From contig MQRK01215992.1 in assembly GCA_001938485.1 (NCBI GenBank), forward strand, positions 1-64,000: DNA of 64,000 bases. The letters run 5' to 3'. Every line of letters begins with the position of its first letter. Position 1 is the first letter of the stretch. Positions 2,867 to 64,000 of the stretch are shown here, piece by piece. Position numbers and translations under genes: made by a program. The notes under the pieces were generated by a model, which saw only the letters and a list, made by a program, of their open reading frames with translations, was not told the DNA's origin and ran no database searches. Source of the DNA: Girardia tigrina. Its lineage: Eukaryota.

Positions 2867-3670
2867 TAGGCTTTCCACTTTTAAATGTGATTTTTTTCAT
2901 TTTGAAGTGTGAAAACTTTATAAATAAATTTACTACTAATATATTGATAATAATTTAATAAATATAGGCTTGTTTCACGGGCTGAGGGAAACAATTTCAT
3001 CTTTGTAGATGAAGTTGGCTTCAATATAAGCATGCGCTGCCGATATGGAAGAAGTGAGCGTAGTCATGCAGTAATTCAGCGCGTTCAAAATATCAGAAGT
3101 AGAAATATTTCCGTTTGTTGTGGACTGCTTAAGACCAGTGTGCTGTACTATAAAAGACAAAATAGTGCTATCAATATTGAAACCTTTTTAGAATTTATTG
3201 ATGATACCGTAGTTAAACTGGCCGAAATGAATATGAGTAATATGATGTTTATTATGGACAATGTCGCATTCCATAAGACCCACCTTGTTGCAGAAAAAAC
3301 AGCTTCCGGGCATACAAATCATTTTTTGCCACCCTACTCCCCATTTTTGAATCCTATCGAGATCATGTTTTCTGAGGTAAAGCAGCGTCTTAGAGTGGCC
3401 CGCCCTCAAAATGAAGAGCAGTTATTCACCAGTATCGACTCTATGAAAATTACTATCGGCACATGCTATCTTTTATTCCGTAATGCTTGAACAGAGAAAT
3501 AATTGATGATGAAAATTATAATTAAATCATTACATGAAAGTGTTTTTATTGAACAATTTTTTATATGTTTTTATATAACTTTTTTCATCTTTTTAATTTT
3601 CACACTTCAAAGTGGAAATATTCACACTTAAAAATGAAAAAAATTCACATTTAAAAGTGGAAATAAACTG
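2867..3670 (+). mobile_element. Internally deleted Tc1/IS630-type transposon
   Basis: About 50-bp inverted repeats (TTTCCACTTTTAAATGTGA...AAGTGTGAA). The right end is ...AAACTG followed by TA. It encloses a DDE domain. Confidence 0.8.
2999..3490 (+). pseudogene. Tc1/IS630-family transposase, DDE domain only
   Basis: In-frame IFVDEVGFN ... IMDNVAFHK ... FLPPYSPFLNPIE. There are 33 residues between the second D and E; the N-terminal HTH is missing. Confidence 0.9.
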
Positions 3671-11719: not shown

Positions 11720-12239
11720 TGTTGGGATCGAGAAATTTCCTGATCGACACCAGGCCAATCCATTAAGAGGGCACTGAGTCTGATGGAAAATTTCTCGGGA
11801 TCTGAAATAAAATAAAATTATTAAAAAAATATAATATTAATTAATTAAAACTAACCTTAATTGATTTTGGACTTTGATCTGAAATAAAAAATATGATTAT
11901 TAAAATTAATTGTATAAAAAGCTTAGCTAATTAATTTCACCTTTGATCCTGAAATTAACAAAAATAATTATTATCTATGTAATTAGAAAACTTACTTGAT
12001 CCATCTGACTTTTGATCGTTGTTCATCTAAATGAAAATTTTGTTATTTTTATTTCATTAAAACAAAAACTTACTTGATTGATTTGGACTTTGTTGTCGAT
12101 AGATAACGGCAGGGGCTTATAGTTCCTGACGAAACTGTTGACATAAATTCCAGCGATCTCGAAATTTATGTGAAAATTTCGAAAAAAGGAATTACTATAA
12201 ATTCGTTTGAATCTATTATTTGTTCAGGAAGTTTTTTGT
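11720..12239 (-). other. Spliced micro-exon transcription unit (lncRNA or small-peptide gene), antisense within the putative LTR
   Basis: Four consecutive GT-AG introns at 12073-12027, 11995-11949, 11940-11879 and 11855-11802. Donors are GTAAGT, GTAAGT, GTGAAA and GTTAGT; acceptors are TTTAG and TTTCAG x3. Internal exons are 31, 8 and 23 nt. Confidence 0.7.
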
Positions 12240-12663
12240 CTAGTTGTTAATTACAAATTAATAAATTTTTCAATCTTCAGTTTTTGTGAGTCTTTAATTT
12301 TAATTTTTTAGAGGTTGATGAAGTATAGATAATAATTGGACATATGTTAAAATATATTGAAGACAGATAGATGATCAGTTGATAGTTACCGGCGGGTGCT
12401 CACAGTGCCTGCTGAGTATATTGATGATCTGGTAGTCGAAAGAAATTGTTCTCTATAGAACATCTTAAATGTCACCGTAGATGAGATAGTCTAATAATCA
12501 AACCTCCATCAACCTCAACCTTTTTTGTTGTCATTGTTAAACCTTTAATATCAATGATGGATAATTGATGAACATTTATGTTTTTAAGTTTATTTATATT
12601 CTTTTAAAATATTTAAAAATTATCCAGTGGAAATATAAGAAATCAACAGAATATAAAGCAACA
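11720..12663 (+). mobile_element. Putative LTR (~944 bp) inserted beside a (TA)n tract
   Basis: Starts TGTTG directly after (TA)n and ends CAACA. It is followed by PBS-like TGATATCA (one mismatch to TGGTATCA) and a decayed frame MDEYL*KKGLRGTQKVIGFVHW*. No second copy in the window. Confidence 0.5.
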
Positions 12664-12949
12664 TGATATCAATAGAGATTTGTTCCTCTAGACAGGAGAT
12701 GGATGAATATTTATAAAAAAAAGGTTTACGAGGAACCCAAAAGGTAATTGGTTTTGTTCACTGGTAAATCATTGGGCCAGATGAACCTTATCGGGTACAA
12801 TACGAACCATTTGCCTGTGTTAGAAGATGAAAGGTAGATGATGTTTGTATCAAAATAATGTGTTGGGTTTATAATAAAAAATAAATTATGCATAATAAAA
12901 AGATAATAAAAACCCAAAATATTATTTTGGGGGCCTCAGCCTGGATAGT

Positions 12950-15003
12950 TTCTCAGAGGCGCCGAAGATAATGTCTGCTGTGACTAAGTTTGTGTTGTCG
13001 AGTGACCCCACCGTTAAAGAGGCTACCGATTCATACGTGGACGACATTATCATGCACTTAAACAAAGTCAATAGTCAAGAGGTTCTAAATATTCTCGTGA
13101 AAATCGGATTGAAGGACAAATTAGCTAAACCGTTGTGCAGGGGTCGCGTTTTAGAACTCCGAGTTTTTAAGGAAGATGGAATGAGGAAATGGAAACGCGA
13201 CAATTGAATTGAAGAATAGAATTGACGAAAAGACAAGTTTTCTCGTGTTTGTGGGCAAGCAACAGGGCACGTCCCTATCGCTGGATGGTTACGACCGACA
13301 TGTAGTTCTTAGAATCGGATGACAAGTGAGAGATAAGTGGGATGAGAAGATAGACCGAGTAAGTGCTGGGATGTTGATGGAAATTAGGATGCGCTTAGAT
13401 GCATGTGATCCAGTGTGTGGAGTGTGGGACATTCCAAAATTGAAAAGGGTCAGGTATGGTGTGATGCGAATAGTCTGGCAATTGGGGTATGTCTGGGAAT
13501 AGATAACATCATTGTGTAAGATAACTGCTGGCTGCAGAAGAAAGATGACGTTTGTCACATCAATTTGGCAGAAATAGAAGCAGTATTAAAAGGCGTGGGG
13601 CTTGATGGAAATATACTTAATGTGCGACTCTGCAACGGTATGCCCATGTATAAACTCAATCATTTCAAAGGAGAAACGAGTAAAAGTGCACGGATTGTCT
13701 GAGGTGTTAGTCAGGAGACGATTATTCTTGTTGGAACAATTGATGAAGGAATACAATGCGTCTTTGATGATTTCGTTCGGGAAAGCCATTGAAAATAAAT
13801 CTGACGTTTTAACAAGGGTTCCTGCGTGTGGGTTCAAACAATCGAAATGTTTAATGACATTCAGTTCTGGAAGTGTGTCATCAGTCAAAGATGTCAAAGC
13901 AGTCCATTCAGTGCACAATTGTAATGTTGATAGAACTCCTATTTCAGTTTGAAAGATTTTTGGAACTGCGGATAAGACTACGGTCGCTAAGGTGGTGGCG
14001 GAATGTGACCGTTGTTTGTCGATCGGTCAAAGCGCAGTGCAGTGGAGCAAGGGCGAACTGGTAGTACCGAAAAATTGGCGACGTCTTGCTTGTGATATCA
14101 CTCACTATGGTGGTGCGATATTCTTTACGTGCATGGATTGTGGGCCGAGTCGTTTTGCGATTTGGAGACGGGTGAGCAATGAGAGCGCCGAGATAGTTAT
14201 GGAGATTCTAGTGGAAATTTTTCGAGAAAGGGGACCTTTGAATGATTTACTCTGTGATACTGGAAAATGCTTCTGATCAGAAACATCGCAAAGATCGTGT
14301 GAATTGTGGAATGTGTAGCTCAGATATCGTTGCTCATATCGCCAGTCAGGGAATGGCATTGCCGATAGAAATCGTCCTATAATAAAAGGAATGGTTGCCA
14401 GATCCAGAGGGGATGTGCTAGACATGGCATTTTATTATAATTTTACTCCAAAAACAGGAAATAGCAGGGAATCGGTTCCCATTAATGTAATCTTCTCATA
14501 TGAATGGCGGTTTCCGATGATGAGACACAAGGATAAACAGTACTGTGGAGTAGAGTTTACGCCATGGGACCAAGTTTACGTGAAACCAGGTGGAGCTCGA
14601 TGCACATTGTGTTGTAGCAGAGGGTTGGTTTCGCGAGTTAACTCTGTGACATCGATCGACATCGACGGTATTCCCAGGCACGTTGCCGATTTGAGACGCG
14701 TACCATACGTATCGGAACCTGTGACATCAGATGTCACTGTGGACGTGAGAAATGAATTGCCTCCTGCCATCAAAGAATCATCAGATGTTAACAAGACGAG
14801 TGAGTCTGGCCCTGATCCGATGCTAGACAGACCTAAGAGAGTTCATCGGGTACCTAACTGGTTCAACGATTATGACATGAATGATGATGACATCACGGGG
14901 GTGTGAGATGGAGAAAATAATTAATTGTTTGGCGCGTGATTTGAAGAGAATTAATTTGTCGGTAAAAGTAAATTTTTGCTAAATTTTCATTCGTGTTGTT
15001 ACA
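12950..15003 (+). mobile_element. Decayed Ty3/Gypsy pol (RT-RNaseH-integrase) with PPT-like tract and short 3' LTR (14902-15003)
   Basis: APKIMSAV..SYVDDII (RT), HINLAE (RNase H region), C..C and WRRLACDITHY..DCGPSRFAIW (integrase). The G-rich CACGGGGG is followed by a TG...CA block of about 100 bp. Stops and frameshifts are present. Confidence 0.9.
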
Positions 15004-17326: not shown

Positions 17327-17406
17327 TATTCATACTTATCTTTAAACCAAAGTTATGAGAGTAGACTCTAGTATCATAACTTTGGTGTAAAGATAAGTAT
17401 TGAATA
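17327..17406. repeat. Long inverted repeat/hairpin (27-bp arms, one mismatch)
   Basis: ATACTTATCTTTAAACCAAAGTTATGA, 15-nt loop, TCATAACTTTGGTGTAAAGATAAGTAT. Confidence 0.85.
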
Positions 17407-28664: not shown

Positions 28665-29059
28665 TATATATATATATATGACCGTCAAAATCTATTTCTT
28701 AAATCCTTGATCCTAGGATTTTAATTTTTTCTTGATGAAACATGAACTCAGATTCATTTTTTTGGATATTTAATAAAAATTAGATTATTCTTTTTAAAAT
28801 CTTAAAAATTCCAAAGACATCTGATAAATTATTTTTGTGAGAAAAATATTGAAATAATATTTCGAGGTATTTCATTAATAAATATATGAATTTAAAATTA
28901 TATTTCAATAAATACATTTAGTCTAATGTACATTTTGGATTGAAGATCGATTCAAAACTGCACCTTATTTTGCAACATAAATCAATATATCGCTACTGGA
29001 GCATATGATTATAATATATATTTAATTAAGCACTTTTTAAAAGTTTATCGTTGAACATG

Positions 29060-30345
29060 TTTCAATCAGGATATTTGGCATGAATTAATGAACCATCAAG
29101 TAGCATTAGATGAAAGTTCTAAAGAAAAAAATGCGTTTTGCACAAGAACACAACAGTATTGTTTTAACCGTGTACCATTTGGACTTTCAACAGCACCAGG
29201 AACGTTTCAAAGAATAATGAATTCATTATCTGAAGATTTGCTATTCTCTGGAGTAGTAATTTACCTAGATGATGCCTTAATTTACTCAAAATCAATGATG
29301 GATCATATAAGACTATAAGAAGAAGTACTGAATAGACTGAAGAAAGCAGGTTTAAATGTCAATTCAGGGAAATGCAAGTTCGGAGTGGGGGAACTGGTAT
29401 TTCTGGGGCATACAATTTACGAAGAAGGTATCTCAACAAATAAATTGAAATTGACAGAAATTCAAAATTTTCCGATTCCAAAGCGTATTCGAAATTTACG
29501 AGCATTTTTATGTCTGTGTAACTACTATCGACGGTTTATCAAGAATTACGCAGAATTAGCAGCACCTATGCACAGTGCATGTAGCGGAAAATGTAAAGAA
29601 ATATTTAGGTCAGACGAGTGCGACAGAAGTTTTAACGAGTTGAAGTAAAGGCTATGTGGTGCACCAATATTGACATATGTGAACCCGAATAATAATTCCA
29701 TCTTAGCTACAGAGATGCATTATTCGGATCGATAGGAGCAGTTCTAAGTCATATCAAAAGAGAAAGAAGTATTAATCGAGTATGCATCGAGGACTTTAAC
29801 CACACATGAAAAAGGGTACTGTGTGACAAGAAAGGAATTATTAACTCTACAAGAGCTCTTGTTAAATTTTAAGCAAGTTACAATTTATATGGAAAGCGAT
29901 TTAAAGCAAGAACTGATCATAAAGCACTGGTATGTATGAAGAGCACTTCCAAACCAATAACTCCTCAATTCCAGACATCGTTAGCAAACATGGTAGATTT
30001 GGACTTTGATTTGAAGTAAATATAAGGTGACGAACATGGAAATGCAGATGAATTATCACATCTGTGCACAATGTGAAACAGAACACGAAGAACCAAAATC
30101 AACAAAAGCAATGACGAAACATATCAATACAGTGGTGATTCAGTCTACAATTCAATGGATAAAAGACGAACAAGAAAAGTGCTCAAAGTTAAACCAGTTG
30201 AAACAAATACAGGATATGACAGAGGGTAAAAAGAATAAAATCACCAAGGAGTTATTGCAACTAAAGGACCAATTAGTGTATCAGAATAAGTTATGGGGTA
30301 GGCAAGAAGGAAAATGTTTGTTACCATTGGTTCCGAAGCAAATGC
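29060..30345 (+). mobile_element. Decayed Ty3/Gypsy pol (RT-RNaseH)
   Basis: RVPFGLSTAPGTFQRIM, IYLDD, FLGH, LCNYYRRFIKNYA, IGAVLS, EKGYCVTRKELL and RTDHKAL. Confidence 0.92.
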
Positions 30346-30910
30346 TAATGCTTTTGACAGATGTGTCAAAATTTAAAATTTTCGGAAATAAGCGAAGACA
30401 ATTTATTCGTAGAAAACCAGGTTATCGTTAAACATCTAACTGTTTTTCACAAACAGCGAAACCAAGTGGATGTATTGGAAATGATTTAGCTATCATGGTG
30501 TTGGTACATTAGTCAAAGTGAATGGAATAATGAAAAAATAAAAATATCATTAAATACTTGTACGTGGTGCTTTTCCCCAAGGTATCGATTTAATTGGTTA
30601 CAGTTTCTTTTTTCCGCCAGATAATGATCCAAAAAATTTAAGTTATGTCAAAGATATTTGAAGTCAAAAGTGTATGATGCAGTGGTAAGAATAATGAAGT
30701 TACCACCTCAATCACCCAATGTCAATGTCATTGAATTACTATAGGATGAGTTCGGTCGTCCAGTCAAAATGATAAGACCATTAAGTGAATTTCATTCGTG
30801 ACAATGTTTACAAAACGTATGGAACTATCTTTAAACAGAAAAACTTCAAAAACTTGTTTAAAGAATGTAAAAAAAATATGTAAGGTCATCATTAAAGCAA
30901 AGTGGTTATT
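30346..30910 (+). mobile_element. Decayed Tc1 transposase fragment abutting the Gypsy
   Basis: TDVSKFKIFGNKRRQFIRRKPG, DNDPK and PPQSPNVNVIE. Confidence 0.85.
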
Positions 30911-41416: not shown

Positions 41417-42380
41417 ATGTGGTGCGCCCAATAAGTCGGGAAATTAATATAGAAAGACTTAAGAATCAAGACAACACTTTATATTTAGAACAAGCATTTC
41501 CTTGTGCACTGACACAATTTACCTGCAAATATCGAGGTTTTTGAAGGCGTTTTTGAAGAATTCTACAGGCTTTTCTCCCAGAAAATTCTCCACGGCGGTC
41601 TCAAATCATCTTTGTTTGCAAAAAATTGGATCTGTAGATGCTTTTTAAGATAGTTAATAAAAAAATTGGGACTATATGGTGGATAAAGAAGCAAAGTGAG
41701 CCCGCACCGCTCAATTTTGCCATAGAAACGCTGCTGGTGTGGATTGGAGCATTATCGTGTAGAAAATATATATCACACACTCCGCTTTTGAGTCGCGCCT
41801 TCCTTGCTTGCAGCACAATGTTAGAGTAGTAAGAATTATTGATCTTCGCGCCGGATTCATAAAATTCAGTCAGAATAACATCAGCATGAGAACCTTTAGG
41901 TGGCAAGTTGAGGACCCTATTTTCAGTGCGCTGCTTTCTTTTTGCAATTTCTATTTTTGTGACTCTCTTTTCGATTTGGGGACAATGGTGCTTCATTCGC
42001 GGTGATTCCAAGTAGCATTCCAAACGTCGTTGTCGCATTTCCACTGTTAAAAAGCTTGGTAAAAAGGGTACATAGTTTTCGAGTACCACTTTCAGAGAGG
42101 AGAGTATGCACAGTGCTTTTGCTCACTTTTTCTGGCTGGATAAAACTGACTACTATCTCCACTTCTCCGTAAAATTGGCCGAAGAATTACCAATTTTTTG
42201 AAACTAAATTAAACGATGTAAATCTTTGGTGAAATTATCGTTTTTAAATAAATTTTTTTTTGAATTCGTGAATGCGGAGAATATTTTTTTGAAATTAGTC
42301 TTTTATTTGTTATTTTTTAATAAAATAAAAATAAATATAAAATGAGTTATGCTGTGAATAGTTTGAATAACACCTGCATA
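41417..42380 (-). mobile_element. Degenerate mariner transposon
   Basis: SKSTVH (HTH), RKLC, YFLHDNAPIHTS and HPPYSP motifs across frames, with TA-flanked degenerate TIRs. Confidence 0.85.
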
Positions 42381-58439: not shown

Positions 58440-59637
58440 ATTTGAATACAATTGGTAAACTGCCGAACAAAAAATTTCCAAGCCAATCAAAATTTATTAA
58501 TTTCGACGGTTTAACCGTCATCGTCAGAATAAATGATTTTTCAAACGAAATTTACTTCTATAGTGCAGTTAATGATTATGCAATTAATACGTAATCAGTA
58601 CATCATTTAAAAACTCCCAACAAAGTTGCAAAGAATGTAGTTTGAACGTTAATTTTAGGATCCCAAGATCTTGTATATAAAGCTTTACAAATTACTCTCT
58701 TCCAAAAATTTTTAAATTGAGTGCACAGAATTTTAAAGCGTTGTGAATTTAAATCTCCTTTACAATGTATTCTATGCCCTGTGATGTTACTTCCACCTTC
58801 CTTACGACTGTGTTCCTGGATTCTCTTACAGTGATGACGTGAAGTCTCTCCAATGTATGTGGTCTTACACCCATTACATGTATATTGGTAAATGAGATCC
58901 GAATACAATCCTAATGGCGTTGGAGATTTATTGCCGAACATGCTTTCAATTTTTTTGGGTACGGGATATTACTCTTAAACTTTTAGCATTCAAAATAGAA
59001 TTTCTTAATATTTTAAACCCCTATAAAACAAATATTCAATTTCTAAACTTTTATCATTAGTGTTCCAAGGTTGCTCTTGATCTTGAACATTTAAAATTTT
59101 ATTATTGTTATTAAATATTCTAACAGTCAATTTTAAAGCAGTATCAAAGTAATCTTTTTCTGAAGCAATAAATCTGTTATATCTTGAGGAAGGTCTATTG
59201 AAAGCTTGTCGAGACGTCACAAAACATTTTGCTTTGGAGAACGTTTTTTATTGGAGATAAAATATTGTATTCAAATTTCAAAAGATCAAGTGAATTAAGC
59301 GTGGAGAATTAATGGAAATGCTATGTTATTAAATTTTTAAGTAGTGCATTGTCAGATAAATATAGGATAAGGGTACATGTTATCTTCATTTATCTGAAGA
59401 AGTTTTTTGGTGGCAATCCGTGTGAAGTCATCTAGTTAAGCCTGAAAATATTTGTTTTTACCAACAAAGTTTTTTGTCGGACTAAAGAATTTTATGAGAA
59501 TAGTGTTGCTTCTTTTGGAGTGGCTACGTTTTCATGGAAAGAAGTGTCAGATCAATATGTGTGATGGTCTCCGAAGGATTCAATAAAACAGCTTTACAGA
59601 AAGGTTTCACAGATTTTGAAGTAAACATAAAAATGAA
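58440..59637 (-). mobile_element. Penelope-like element: decayed RT, GIY-YIG endonuclease (ORF 58603-58941) and pLTR
   Basis: LIYQYTCNGCKTTYIGETSR..RIQEH and FKIL..R...KALY....PKINVQ, with a hammerhead downstream. Confidence 0.9.
58485..58538 (-). ncRNA. Minimal PLE-type hammerhead ribozyme, intact core
   Basis: auu-CUGACGA-U-GACGG[uuaaa]CCGUC-GAAA-UUAA-UA-aau, with a perfect 5-bp stem II and palindromic A-UUAA-U stem III. Confidence 0.75.
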
Positions 59638-60013: not shown

Positions 60014-60412
60014 ATATCCCAACATTATAATTATAATAAAGCCCTAACTACCTTATGTAGTTAGGGATATTGAAATTTAAATTAAAAATTAAAATTAAAT
60101 AATATGATTGATTAATCGATCAGAAATAATAAATTAGACATAAAAAATTGAGAAAAAGAATTGGAAGCCATATAATTACTATTTGTCATTTTTAATTTTT
60201 TTATCCTTATGATTTCGATTATTGGCATTTTCGTGAAGAATTGATCATATTCAATAGACATATTCAATATATATATATATATATATATATATATNNNNNN
60301 NNNNNNNNNNNNNNNNNNNNNNNNNNNNNNNNNNNNNNNNNNNNNNNNNNNNNNNNNNNNNNNNNNNNNNNNNNNNNNNNNNNNNNNNNNNNNNNNNNNN
60401 NNNNNNNNNNNN

Positions 60413-61352
60413 ATTATTTTCAATCACTTTCTTCCACCTTTCCGGTAGCTTCATTATTCCTGATTCATAAAAACCTTTGCCTTTGTCAGCAAAAAAACCG
60501 TCTAGGAACGATTTGATGTCATCATCACTGGGGAATGTTTTTCTGTTTAATGAATTCTGCAGTGATCTAAATAAGTGAAAATCCGATGGGGCCAAATCTG
60601 GAGAATACGGTGGGTGCGGTAAAACCTCCCAACCCAGTGATAAGAGTTTCTGGCGAGTGGTCAAACTTGTATGTGGTCTTGCGTTATCTGCTGAATTACA
60701 ACTCATTTTCGATTTACCAATTCAGGACGTTCCTGTTGAATTGAATGAGCCAATTTCTCCAGCTGACCACAATATCTGTCTGTTTCATTCCTCGGAAGGA
60801 GTTCAAAAAACACAATTCCTTTAAAATCCCACCAGACGGAAAGCATAACCGTCTTTTGGTGAATTTCTGCTTTTGCGATCGTTTTGGCAGGCTCACCACG
60901 TTTTGTCCATGATCATCGGCGTTCCACATTGTTGTAAACAATCCATTTTTCGTCGCCCGTAATCAAGCGCTTCAAAAATAGATCACTTTGTTCTCGCTTC
61001 AAAAGGGAATCGCAAATGTCTATACGTTTCACCAAATGAATTTTTTTCAGTTCATATGGCAACCACATATCGAGTTTACTGACGAATCCAAGTTTCTTTA
61101 AATGACATCCATTACTTGATTTTGATATTTCCAGAGTCTCTGCAACTTCTCTTGTCGTCATATGTGGATTAGATTTGATCAATGCTGTTATTTTGTCGCG
61201 AAACAAAATCAATTAATATTTTGTATAAACATAGTCTGAAAATTAAGGTTTCAGAATATATAATTGAATTTAAATTTTATCATATCGTTTTATATTTTCA
61301 AGCTTTTTATTATGACGTACTCAAAAACGCAATGACTTTTTGGTCAACCCAA
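60413..61352 (-). mobile_element. Relatively young mariner (DD34D); 3' end lost in a gap
   Basis: 5' TIR TA|TTGGGTTGACCAAAAAGTCATTGCGTTTT, then WLPYEL, LITGDEKWIVYNN, DNARPH and HPPYSPDLAPSDFHLF. Frameshifts and an internal deletion are present. Confidence 0.95.
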
Positions 61353-62680: not shown

Positions 62681-63206
62681 TTCTTCTTCTTCTTCTTTTG
62701 ACCTTAGCCGTTGGCCCGTAGGTGCACCCAATTATAAACAAGCCTTCGCCACTTCTTTCTATTTGTAGCTTCTTTTCTCAGACATTCCATAGTCAGTCCA
62801 GTCCATTCTTTTAAATCGTCCATCCATTGCCTCTTTGGTCTTCCTCTTGGTCTTTCTCCTTCCACTCTTCCCTCAATCATAACCTTTGTTAATACTTGTT
62901 TTCTTATTTGATGACCGTAGAATTTTAGCTTCCTTCTCTTGATGATCTCTTCTATTGATTCCGGTCTTTTACCTAGTATTTCTGTCACTCTCCTCCAAAC
63001 AAAGTCATTTGTCTTCTTTTCTTTCCACGTGATCTTCAGCATTCTCCTGTAGCACTTCATTTCAAACGCTTTAAGCCTATCCATACTCTTCTGATTTATT
63101 GTCCAACTCTCGCATCCATAGAGGAGTGTTGCCCAGACAATAGCCTTAGTGATCTTCAATCTGCTCTTGAGATGGATTTCTTTGAGGAAAAAAAAATCAA
63201 AAAAAA
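62681..63206 (-). mobile_element. 5'-truncated RTE-clade LINE
   Basis: LLYGCESW, FEMKCYRRML, LKFYGH and GERPRGRPKRQW motifs, a (GAA)n tail, and a perfect 9-bp TSD GCAAAAATC (62672-62680 / 63207-63215). Confidence 0.93.
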
Positions 63207-64000
63207 GCAAAAATCCAGACTAGCAAAATGATCAGTCAATCATTCAATTTTCCGCTCCAGTTTATAAGGATGGGAGTGATTTTCTTAATAAATTGTAGCA
63301 TTTCAATTGAGAAAGGTTCCTAATCCGTGTAATATATCGATAGAACGCAGACAACTAGTGAAAGTTTTTCCTTCGATCATCATGGAAAAAATTAATTTTA
63401 AGTTAAAATAAATTATTTGTTAGTTAATGTATTAACAAATGATAAATAAAATTTTAATGAAAATATTTCCCATTTATTTAATAAATAACTGTTAAATGGA
63501 TAATAAAAAACGAATATTGAAAACTAAAATAATTGTGTAAATTTATCATCCGTTGCTACCGCCATGAAAAGAGGATTTATTTGCTTTTTAAAAAAAAATA
63601 ATCTTTTTTGGAAAAATAAATTTATTAAAAATATTTTTTAAAATAAAATAAAATGGTTTTTTTGTATTGAATTTTTTAAAATATATTTTCATTAAACGAA
63701 AAATTTTCCAAGAAAAAAAATTTTTTAATTGATAATTTAAATTTTCTACCGTAATAAATTAATTATATATTTTAATGAATTTAAGTGAATAAAATTTCTA
63801 CTGATTAGTGAATTAATGATAAATTAAGAAATAAATGAGTATTTTTTATTGCAATTTCCATCTATAATTAATAAATGTAGATTTGAAATAAGAAATGTTT
63901 TCCCTAGATTTCGATGTAGTAAATATTTAGTTATATAAGTTTCAGTTATTAGTTTTCAACCCCCTGAGACCGAGATAAATGGAATTTTGGAGATTATTTG

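Follow-up and report, generated by a model that had tools for sequence, protein, structure and literature searches.

An antisense cassette of four short introns inside the LTR of a high-copy retrotransposon in Girardia tigrina

Results

A retrotransposon LTR with an antisense cassette

The window is a stretch of 64,000 nucleotides of Girardia tigrina DNA (contig MQRK01215992.1, assembly GCA_001938485.1, positions 1 to 64,000), and all coordinates without a locus number refer to it. It includes one LTR with an intron cassette on its minus strand and hairpins on its plus strand, followed by a primer-binding site and the start of a leader:

11720..12919, plus strand: LTR, 5' copy; 1200 bp, starting with TGTTGGG and ending with a copy-specific CCCAAAA, followed by the primer site
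12074..12226, minus strand: antisense exon 1; 12226 is the reach of one contig with the intron-1 joint, not a mapped start
12027..12073, minus strand: antisense intron 1; 47 nt, GTAAG..TTTAG, joint in run X11
11996..12026, minus strand: antisense exon 2; 31 nt, with an initial ATG in 28 of 29 copies of subfamily A and 0 of 26 of subfamily B
11949..11995, minus strand: antisense intron 2; 47 nt, mostly 50–53 nt in subfamily B, X11 joint 11880–11995
11927..11948, minus strand: antisense exon 3, family form; 22 nt in A, 23 nt in B
11879..11926, minus strand: antisense intron 3, family form; 48 nt, donor CT in the window copy
11856..11878, minus strand: antisense exon 4; 23 nt
11802..11855, minus strand: antisense intron 4; 54 nt here, 57 nt in 52 of 55 copies, joint in two contigs of run X1
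11720..11801, minus strand: antisense exon 5; a hairpin, z -3.6
12084..12092, minus strand: CAAAGTCCA, the HNF4-specific motif in the available text of PMC3384313; end of exon 1
11868..11876, minus strand: second CAAAGTCCA; exon 4
12085..12151, plus strand: hairpin H2; z -4.0, overlapping antisense exon 1, also in a sister LTR family that has no introns
12360..12440, plus strand: hairpin H3; z -4.1, a homolog of H2, one unit here and up to four in tandem at a spacing of about 100 nt elsewhere
12928..12945, plus strand: primer-binding site, complementary to the 3' end of tRNA-Pro(CGG) of the same genome; 8–9 nt past the LTR, two changes here
12946..12959, plus strand: last bases of the family leader, where the family match stops
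12960..14906, plus strand: decayed pol-like piece joined to the leader, apparently of a different element; rve E 0.0011, under the cut-off

The segment 11720..12919 is the LTR of a high-copy retrotransposon. A 944-base query against the 1.43-Gb genome matched other contigs at 89–93% identity among the 40 scored of 1447 candidates, which sets aside the single-copy host locus named in an earlier note on this DNA as the case that would speak against an LTR. The left end of the LTR is sharp at 11720 and its right end is 12919. The earlier note had placed the right end at 12663, with a PBS-like site after it, but 26 of the 27 copies with an alignment at the right end extend beyond that point, the proposed site lies within the LTR, and the real primer site starts at 12928. 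Elsewhere in the family the LTR measures about 1150–1520 bp, and most copies have the termini TGTTGGG...CCCAACA where the window copy ends in CCCAAAA instead. Among 19 solo copies parsed at both ends, the 4-bp target duplication was perfect in 13, had one mismatch in four and more in two. At 14 distinct 5' junctions the primer site lies 8–9 nt beyond the LTR, and at locus L056 it is a 17-nt complement of the genome's own tRNA-Pro(CGG) plus CCA (27 tRNA loci read). The inverted-repeat TG...CA termini, the 4-bp duplications and the tRNA primer site are those of an LTR retrotransposon, and together with an internal region that has a gag-like frame they bear out the original identification of the segment as an LTR. 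One and the same LTR lies at both ends of a common internal region, the junctions being linked through overlapping copies rather than by a contig with a whole element. The proposed genome search for paired LTRs, target duplications and gag-pol thus yielded duplications, 5' and 3' junctions and gag-like remnants, but no pol.

Layout and origin of the cassette

The minus-strand GT..AG stretches 12073–12027 (47 nt), 11995–11949 (47 nt), 11940–11879 (62 nt) and 11855–11802 (54 nt), and the exons of 31, 8 and 23 nt that they delimit, are present in the window sequence as first described. The third of these introns is peculiar to the window copy. In the family the donor is at 11926; it is GT in 29 of 33 copies and CT in the window copy alone, and gives a 22-nt exon and a 48-nt intron that match the contigs described below; the alternative donor at 11940 has no contig support. 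The 8-nt exon is confined to the model of the window copy, in which the family donor is mutated. At 3' LTRs, exon 5 can extend into the internal region up to an AATAAA about 45 nt beyond the LTR (17 distinct junctions).

Chance does not account for a chain of four short introns with exons shorter than 35 nt, as even a chain of at least three was absent from all 2000 dinucleotide shuffles and from all 566 other tiles of the window. The four units, each consisting of an exon end plus an intron, are 61–77% alike, a similarity reached by 0 of 200 shuffles for each (copies L022 and L177). As had been suggested from the window copy, the cassette arose by serial duplication of one exon-end-plus-intron unit.

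Antisense joints in public contigs

Four of 17 listed public runs (X1, X2, X3 and X11) were examined as contigs, which are unstranded and have no recorded RNA type; X1 was taken as RNA by guess, the type of X11 is unrecorded, and these two runs come from two studies. X11 contigs skip 12027–12073 with CT..AC ends (joint 12026–12074), skip 11879–11926 (joint 11878–11927), and join 11880 to 11995 with 19 letters of exon 3 between them, introns 2 and 3 having been removed together. Two contigs of X1 skip 11802–11855 (joint 11801–11856), again with CT..AC ends. One X11 contig has 97 letters before 12074, which by our arithmetic fits 31+22+23+21. The joints are supported by 20–32 letters on their short side and by a depth of 3–14, below the unspliced depth. 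No canonical joint was found among the matches listed for X2 and X3, and several non-canonical skips were also listed among the contigs. The third donor is broken at the window locus, and the joints come from contigs of the family that are not tied to this locus. Joined forms were seen at 0 of 219 genomic loci examined, with 40–43 copies spanning each intron in a set biased to full-length copies.

The four antisense introns thus appear to be precisely removed in contigs that are probably RNA. The spliced antisense RNA that had been proposed for the LTR agrees with these contigs, in which all four joints occur, the runs having no recorded RNA type or strand.

Separately, an X1 contig of depth 15.5 skips 11782–12189, the whole cassette together with H2, with non-canonical ends; it is perhaps an LTR variant that lacks the cassette.

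Splice signals are kept between two subfamilies

The 55 parsed copies fall into 29 of type A (exons of 31, 22 and 23 nt) and 26 of type B (31, 23 and 23 nt). Exons 1, 4 and 5 and intron 4 are alike in the two types. The divergence between A and B is 0.29 and 0.26 for the bodies of introns 1 and 2, compared with 0.04–0.06 within subfamilies, and 0.17 and 0.24 for exons 2 and 3, compared with 0.03–0.06 within. The donor 5-mers differ no more between A and B than within either subfamily, the acceptor AG is retained between them, and the base before the AG of intron 1 changes only between T and C. By our arithmetic for this single subfamily split, the absence of a fixed change from 14 positions, given a net rate of about 0.23, corresponds to a P of about 0.03. 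Splice signals are therefore retained between the subfamilies while intron bodies, exons and reading frame drift.

Comparison of 33 mostly young copies (83–94% identical to the window copy) gave no signal of splice-site conservation, the GT/AG letters varying by 0.049 and the flanks by 0.014–0.062. That splice letters vary like the flanks in young copies is to be expected of changes that arise after insertion. The suggestion that intact splice signals mark a young or selected unit, and the comparison of splice sites with intron bodies proposed to examine it, are thus upheld between A and B but not among the young copies, and the intact signals of the window copy mostly reflect its youth.

Coding potential

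The earlier note had also read an antisense peptide from two frames open across all junctions. Both frames are indeed open in the window copy under the exon model of that note, but this is the only one of 29 A copies in which they are; one frame is open in 14 copies and none in 14. No frame crosses all junctions in 27 of the 29 A copies. An antisense micro-exon protein gene could take one of two forms: a basic, RS-rich peptide of 24 residues from the exon-2 ATG in A, or an ATG-less frame of 52 residues in B. Of 29 A copies, 28 have the ATG at the start of exon 2 and 17 keep the whole 24-codon frame; two of the four changes between A and B in exon 2 are silent in the A frame. In B, 25 of 26 copies keep their frame open through every junction, where a simulation with pooled rates expects 5.2 closed (P 0.02).

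These observations have to be weighed against the absence of a frame common to A and B, since exon 3 differs by one base (22 and 23 nt), and against the lack of the exon-2 ATG in B. Of 34 copies, a single one has an ATG in the upstream part of the A frame. When distinct changes are counted by type, B has three stops with 2.8 expected over the junctions and three with 6.1 expected over the whole frame (P 0.13), without an excess of synonymous changes or a deficit of stops in this conditional test; the corresponding count in A is five with 4.9 expected, which matches neutrality. The test is weak, because changes after insertion are mostly neutral. No selection at the protein level was found in either candidate frame, nor was a start-codon frame kept across copies under purifying selection, and the synonymous and stop counts match the neutral expectation. 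The peptide claimed from the window copy does not hold up, as its frames depend on changes of that copy, on an exon 3 that is off by one base, and on counts that are neutral. A protein gene in either form is an unlikely explanation, and from its sequence the RNA is likely to be non-coding.

Sense-strand hairpins and duplicated motifs

The sense strand of the LTR carries a tandem array of 2–5 homologous hairpins of about 70 nt with a geometry like that of microRNA precursors (in the window and at L020:1193–1570), which is common to the sister LTR family. The sense strand folds better than the antisense strand in 155 of 156 hairpin instances. Across 16 instances, 89.8% of cells are paired and five pairs are changed on both sides, four of them from one event; the predicted loops measure 3–9 nt. 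A search of Rfam at E up to 1 gave no match in four loci, and a ribozyme or known RNA family was rejected accordingly. The TATAAG at about 12120 was considered as an antisense TATA box and also rejected, as it forms the variable loop of H2 and a spliced contig extends above it.

The motif repeated in the exons corresponds to the outer stem of H2, and this bears on whether the cassette derives from part of a host gene, captured as a passenger whose introns persist only because they are antisense to the genomic RNA. LTR elements are described as picking up gene pieces in the portion of PMC7264820 available to us, the sister LTR has other cargo in its U3, and the decay of splice letters at the rate of the flanks among young copies would suit a passenger. 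Against capture, besides the motif shared with H2, exon 5 is the terminal hairpin of the LTR, the units are duplicates of one another, and the parsed B copies have the LTR's own exon 1 and exon 5 around the cassette (30 loci from the best 40 of 438 candidates). From the copies parsed, host capture seems an improbable origin.

The main rival is an enhancer array acting at the DNA level, made of duplicated modules of HNF4-like CAAAGTCCA/CAAAGGTCA and TCF-like ATCAAAG with AT-rich spacers, in which splicing of antisense read-through transcripts is incidental. Each cassette has two or three HNF4-like 9-mers, a number equalled in 0 of 1000 shuffles, and the LTR has none elsewhere. The available text of PMC3384313 gives the motif as the HNF4-specific site, CAAAG is retained in all four units, and the accessible part of PMC8532177 gives BURRO1 as intestinally enriched and hnf4 as a major intestinal factor. 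The HNF4 motif was, however, picked after the sequence had been viewed, and its copies are duplicates and thus not independent. In one subfamily each, exons 2 and 3 have lost the 9-mer, the sister family has no 9-mer in its first 420 bases, and an enhancer leaves the retained acceptors and the intron lengths of 42–57 nt unexplained. A search for Onecut-like motifs gave no enrichment in the window or the A copy. We regard the enhancer array as rather doubtful.

Internal region and 3' junctions

Overlapping copies give an internal region with a leader of about 2 kb, a gag-like frame, a decayed long ORF and about 1.9 kb up to the 3' LTR, and an element of roughly 10 kb. The gag-like frame matches Retrotrans_gag with E 0.0007–0.002, under the Pfam cut-off, and zinc knuckles are above the cut-off in relatives. 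No RT, RH or IN was found inside the 22 family and sister loci tested, the only matches lying in the flank of locus L145, and no env was seen within the internal region of the family. From these 22 loci we infer non-autonomy, and the family is probably a non-autonomous gypsy-type retrotransposon. The pol-like piece at 12960–14906 was rejected as its internal region, having no match in the family loci. A fusion-protein ORF downstream of L002 (PF24664) was likewise rejected as an env of the family, as it belongs to a nested element, and 20 stretches around fusion-protein ORFs gave a single match to the LTR, decayed and at 69%.

Relatives with about 74% DNA identity in gag have CCHC knuckles in it, followed by a long unknown ORF and a fusion glycoprotein of mononegavirus type; the sole match of that long ORF in an atlas search (0.76) was uninformative. 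The sister elements L134/L152 and L141/L151 show gag, long ORF and fusion glycoprotein with no pol seen before the 3' LTR, and are possibly gag-env-only elements. Nested in one family copy is a younger, very abundant element with a fusion glycoprotein (L082–L083; L031:6246–6899), 96–97% identical among the 40 scored of 1380 candidates and with repeats spaced by about 7 kb.

At 17 distinct 3' junctions the 3' LTR is preceded by a C-rich mirror of the primer site in place of a polypurine tract; the sister family has a similar 3' end at one junction. A purine-tract pattern used to find 3' LTRs was abandoned, its one match not being a shared 3' junction. The C-rich mirror pairs with the 5' region at -27.4 kcal/mol with the LTR termini excluded (1 of 500 shuffles), and second-strand priming in the family may be unusual.

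A small hairpin (5 bp/7 nt) and CTGAACCCCCA lie 6 nt from the LTR at L118:4830–4861 and also in L151 before 5470. CTGAACCCCCA is like the tRNA-Pro 3' end at 10 of 11 positions and mirrors the primer site, with one change in L118; the sister family retains the small 3' hairpin and CCCCCA. On the antisense strand, the leader has a frame of 122–124 codons (L094:191–556, minus strand; also L031, L091, L093, L095, L096 and L102) that is open in at least seven copies, with a homologous open frame in the sister family (L135:6006–6611) and no Pfam match. One short gapped contig (L177 with L101) has an internal 3' end, an LTR and, further on, a primer site with leader, as a tandem element would.

Other features of the window

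At 12960–12995 the leader joins the pol-like element about 30 bases from the site at which the solo LTR L019 sits in an element of the same kind, and the solo LTR L189 of the sister family lies in a similar RT region; L019, L189 and the window junction perhaps reflect a common target preference. An inverted repeat of 34 nt with a 1-nt loop (91% complementary) lies at 17332–17400. Other decayed mobile elements were recognised by eye in the ORF list at 2954–3490, 29055–30431, 41601–42122, 58603–58968, 60251–61212 and 62704–63219, and comprise DDE transposases, a gypsy RT piece, mariner pieces, a GIY-YIG piece and a LINE end.

Discussion

The reading we prefer, and to which we give about an even chance, is that the LTR carries a spliced antisense non-coding RNA whose splicing, more than its sequence, is likely to support the element's own expression. 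RNA polymerase II would read U3 in reverse, starting at about 12230 or above, and the four introns within the first 400 bases of the LTR would be taken out by the spliceosome. The antisense RNA of a 3' LTR would stop at the AATAAA that lies a short way into the internal region, and that of solo and 5' LTRs would continue into host DNA. Being antisense, the introns would be retained by the sense genomic RNA through every round of copying. Recruitment of the spliceosome beside the U3 promoter might then raise or license sense transcription, which is the least certain step. As signals and lengths are kept while exons and frame have changed, the act of splicing is the likelier selected trait. The sister family does without the cassette.

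A more ambitious version, which we think decidedly unlikely, would make U3 a device of two strands: a microRNA-like cluster in sense and, in antisense, a four-intron non-coding unit kept for splicing that licenses or boosts the LTR, possibly in the gut through the HNF4 sites of the micro-exons, with the second strand primed without a polypurine tract by means of the tRNA-Pro primer-site mirror pairing the RNA ends.

The cassette allows one to ask, in a natural setting, whether a mobile element gains from splicing as such. Every solo LTR has strong donors and acceptors that face outward (1447 candidates at first look, 40 scored); spliced to host genes nearby, these could mislead annotation. Two separate leads are the array of hairpins and the lack of a polypurine tract.

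Comparison with known systems

Antisense transcription units kept by families of LTR retrotransposons are a general parallel. They include the antisense RNAs of Drosophila micropia and the antisense ORFs of maize Grande, rice RIRE2 and Silene Retand, the plant ORFs lying between pol and the 3' LTR (PMC7264820, in the available part), and the antisense RNA of mussel MchSLE-1 with its ORF of 67 aa (PMC10974842, likewise). The sections of these two papers available to us describe no multi-intron cassette within an LTR, and the available sections of PMC11410931, PMC6884822 and bioRxiv 10.64898/2026.01.28.702291 contain nothing on such cassettes. None with four introns inside an LTR was found in the literature searched, most subscription papers lying outside that search.

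Among planarian elements, the giant gypsy-like Burro/GYPSM1 invite comparison, as the order seen in the relatives (gag with CCHC knuckles, long ORF, fusion glycoprotein) is that described for Burro in the available text of PMC6431247. The present LTR is 1.2–1.5 kb and the element roughly 10 kb, whereas Burro exceeds 30 kb and has a single giant polyprotein (gag, accessory domains, env, PR, RT, RH, IN); here no env or pol was seen, and the relatives have only gag, ORF and env. On account of env, pol and size, the family was not filed as Burro. Grohme et al. reportedly found in 2018 that the LTRs of Burro-1 are AT-rich and give spliced antisense transcripts, and that these Burro transcripts have protein motifs. 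The antisense transcript here differs from those reported for Burro-1 in that it looks non-coding.

Foamy viruses carry microRNA cassettes in U3. The tandem sense-strand hairpins of about 70 nt in the present U3 resemble these in arrangement, but have no Rfam match and predicted loops of only 3–9 nt.

A functional parallel is retroviral. BLV AS1/AS2 and HTLV-1 hbz are spliced antisense RNAs that run from the 3' LTR into the internal region and have partly non-coding roles, as set out in the available part of PMC10186651. By analogy, the present antisense unit would work like such a retroviral antisense RNA, and from a 3' LTR it too would run, spliced, into the internal region. The host here is an invertebrate and the element a retrotransposon, and the four introns lie wholly inside U3, with exons of 22–31 nt from serial duplication, so that every solo LTR carries the unit. 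Spliced antisense LTR RNAs are thus already known from retroviruses and, reportedly, from planarian Burro elements; what sets the present unit apart is a multi-intron cassette formed by duplication inside U3, with splice signals that are kept while exon sequence and frame drift.
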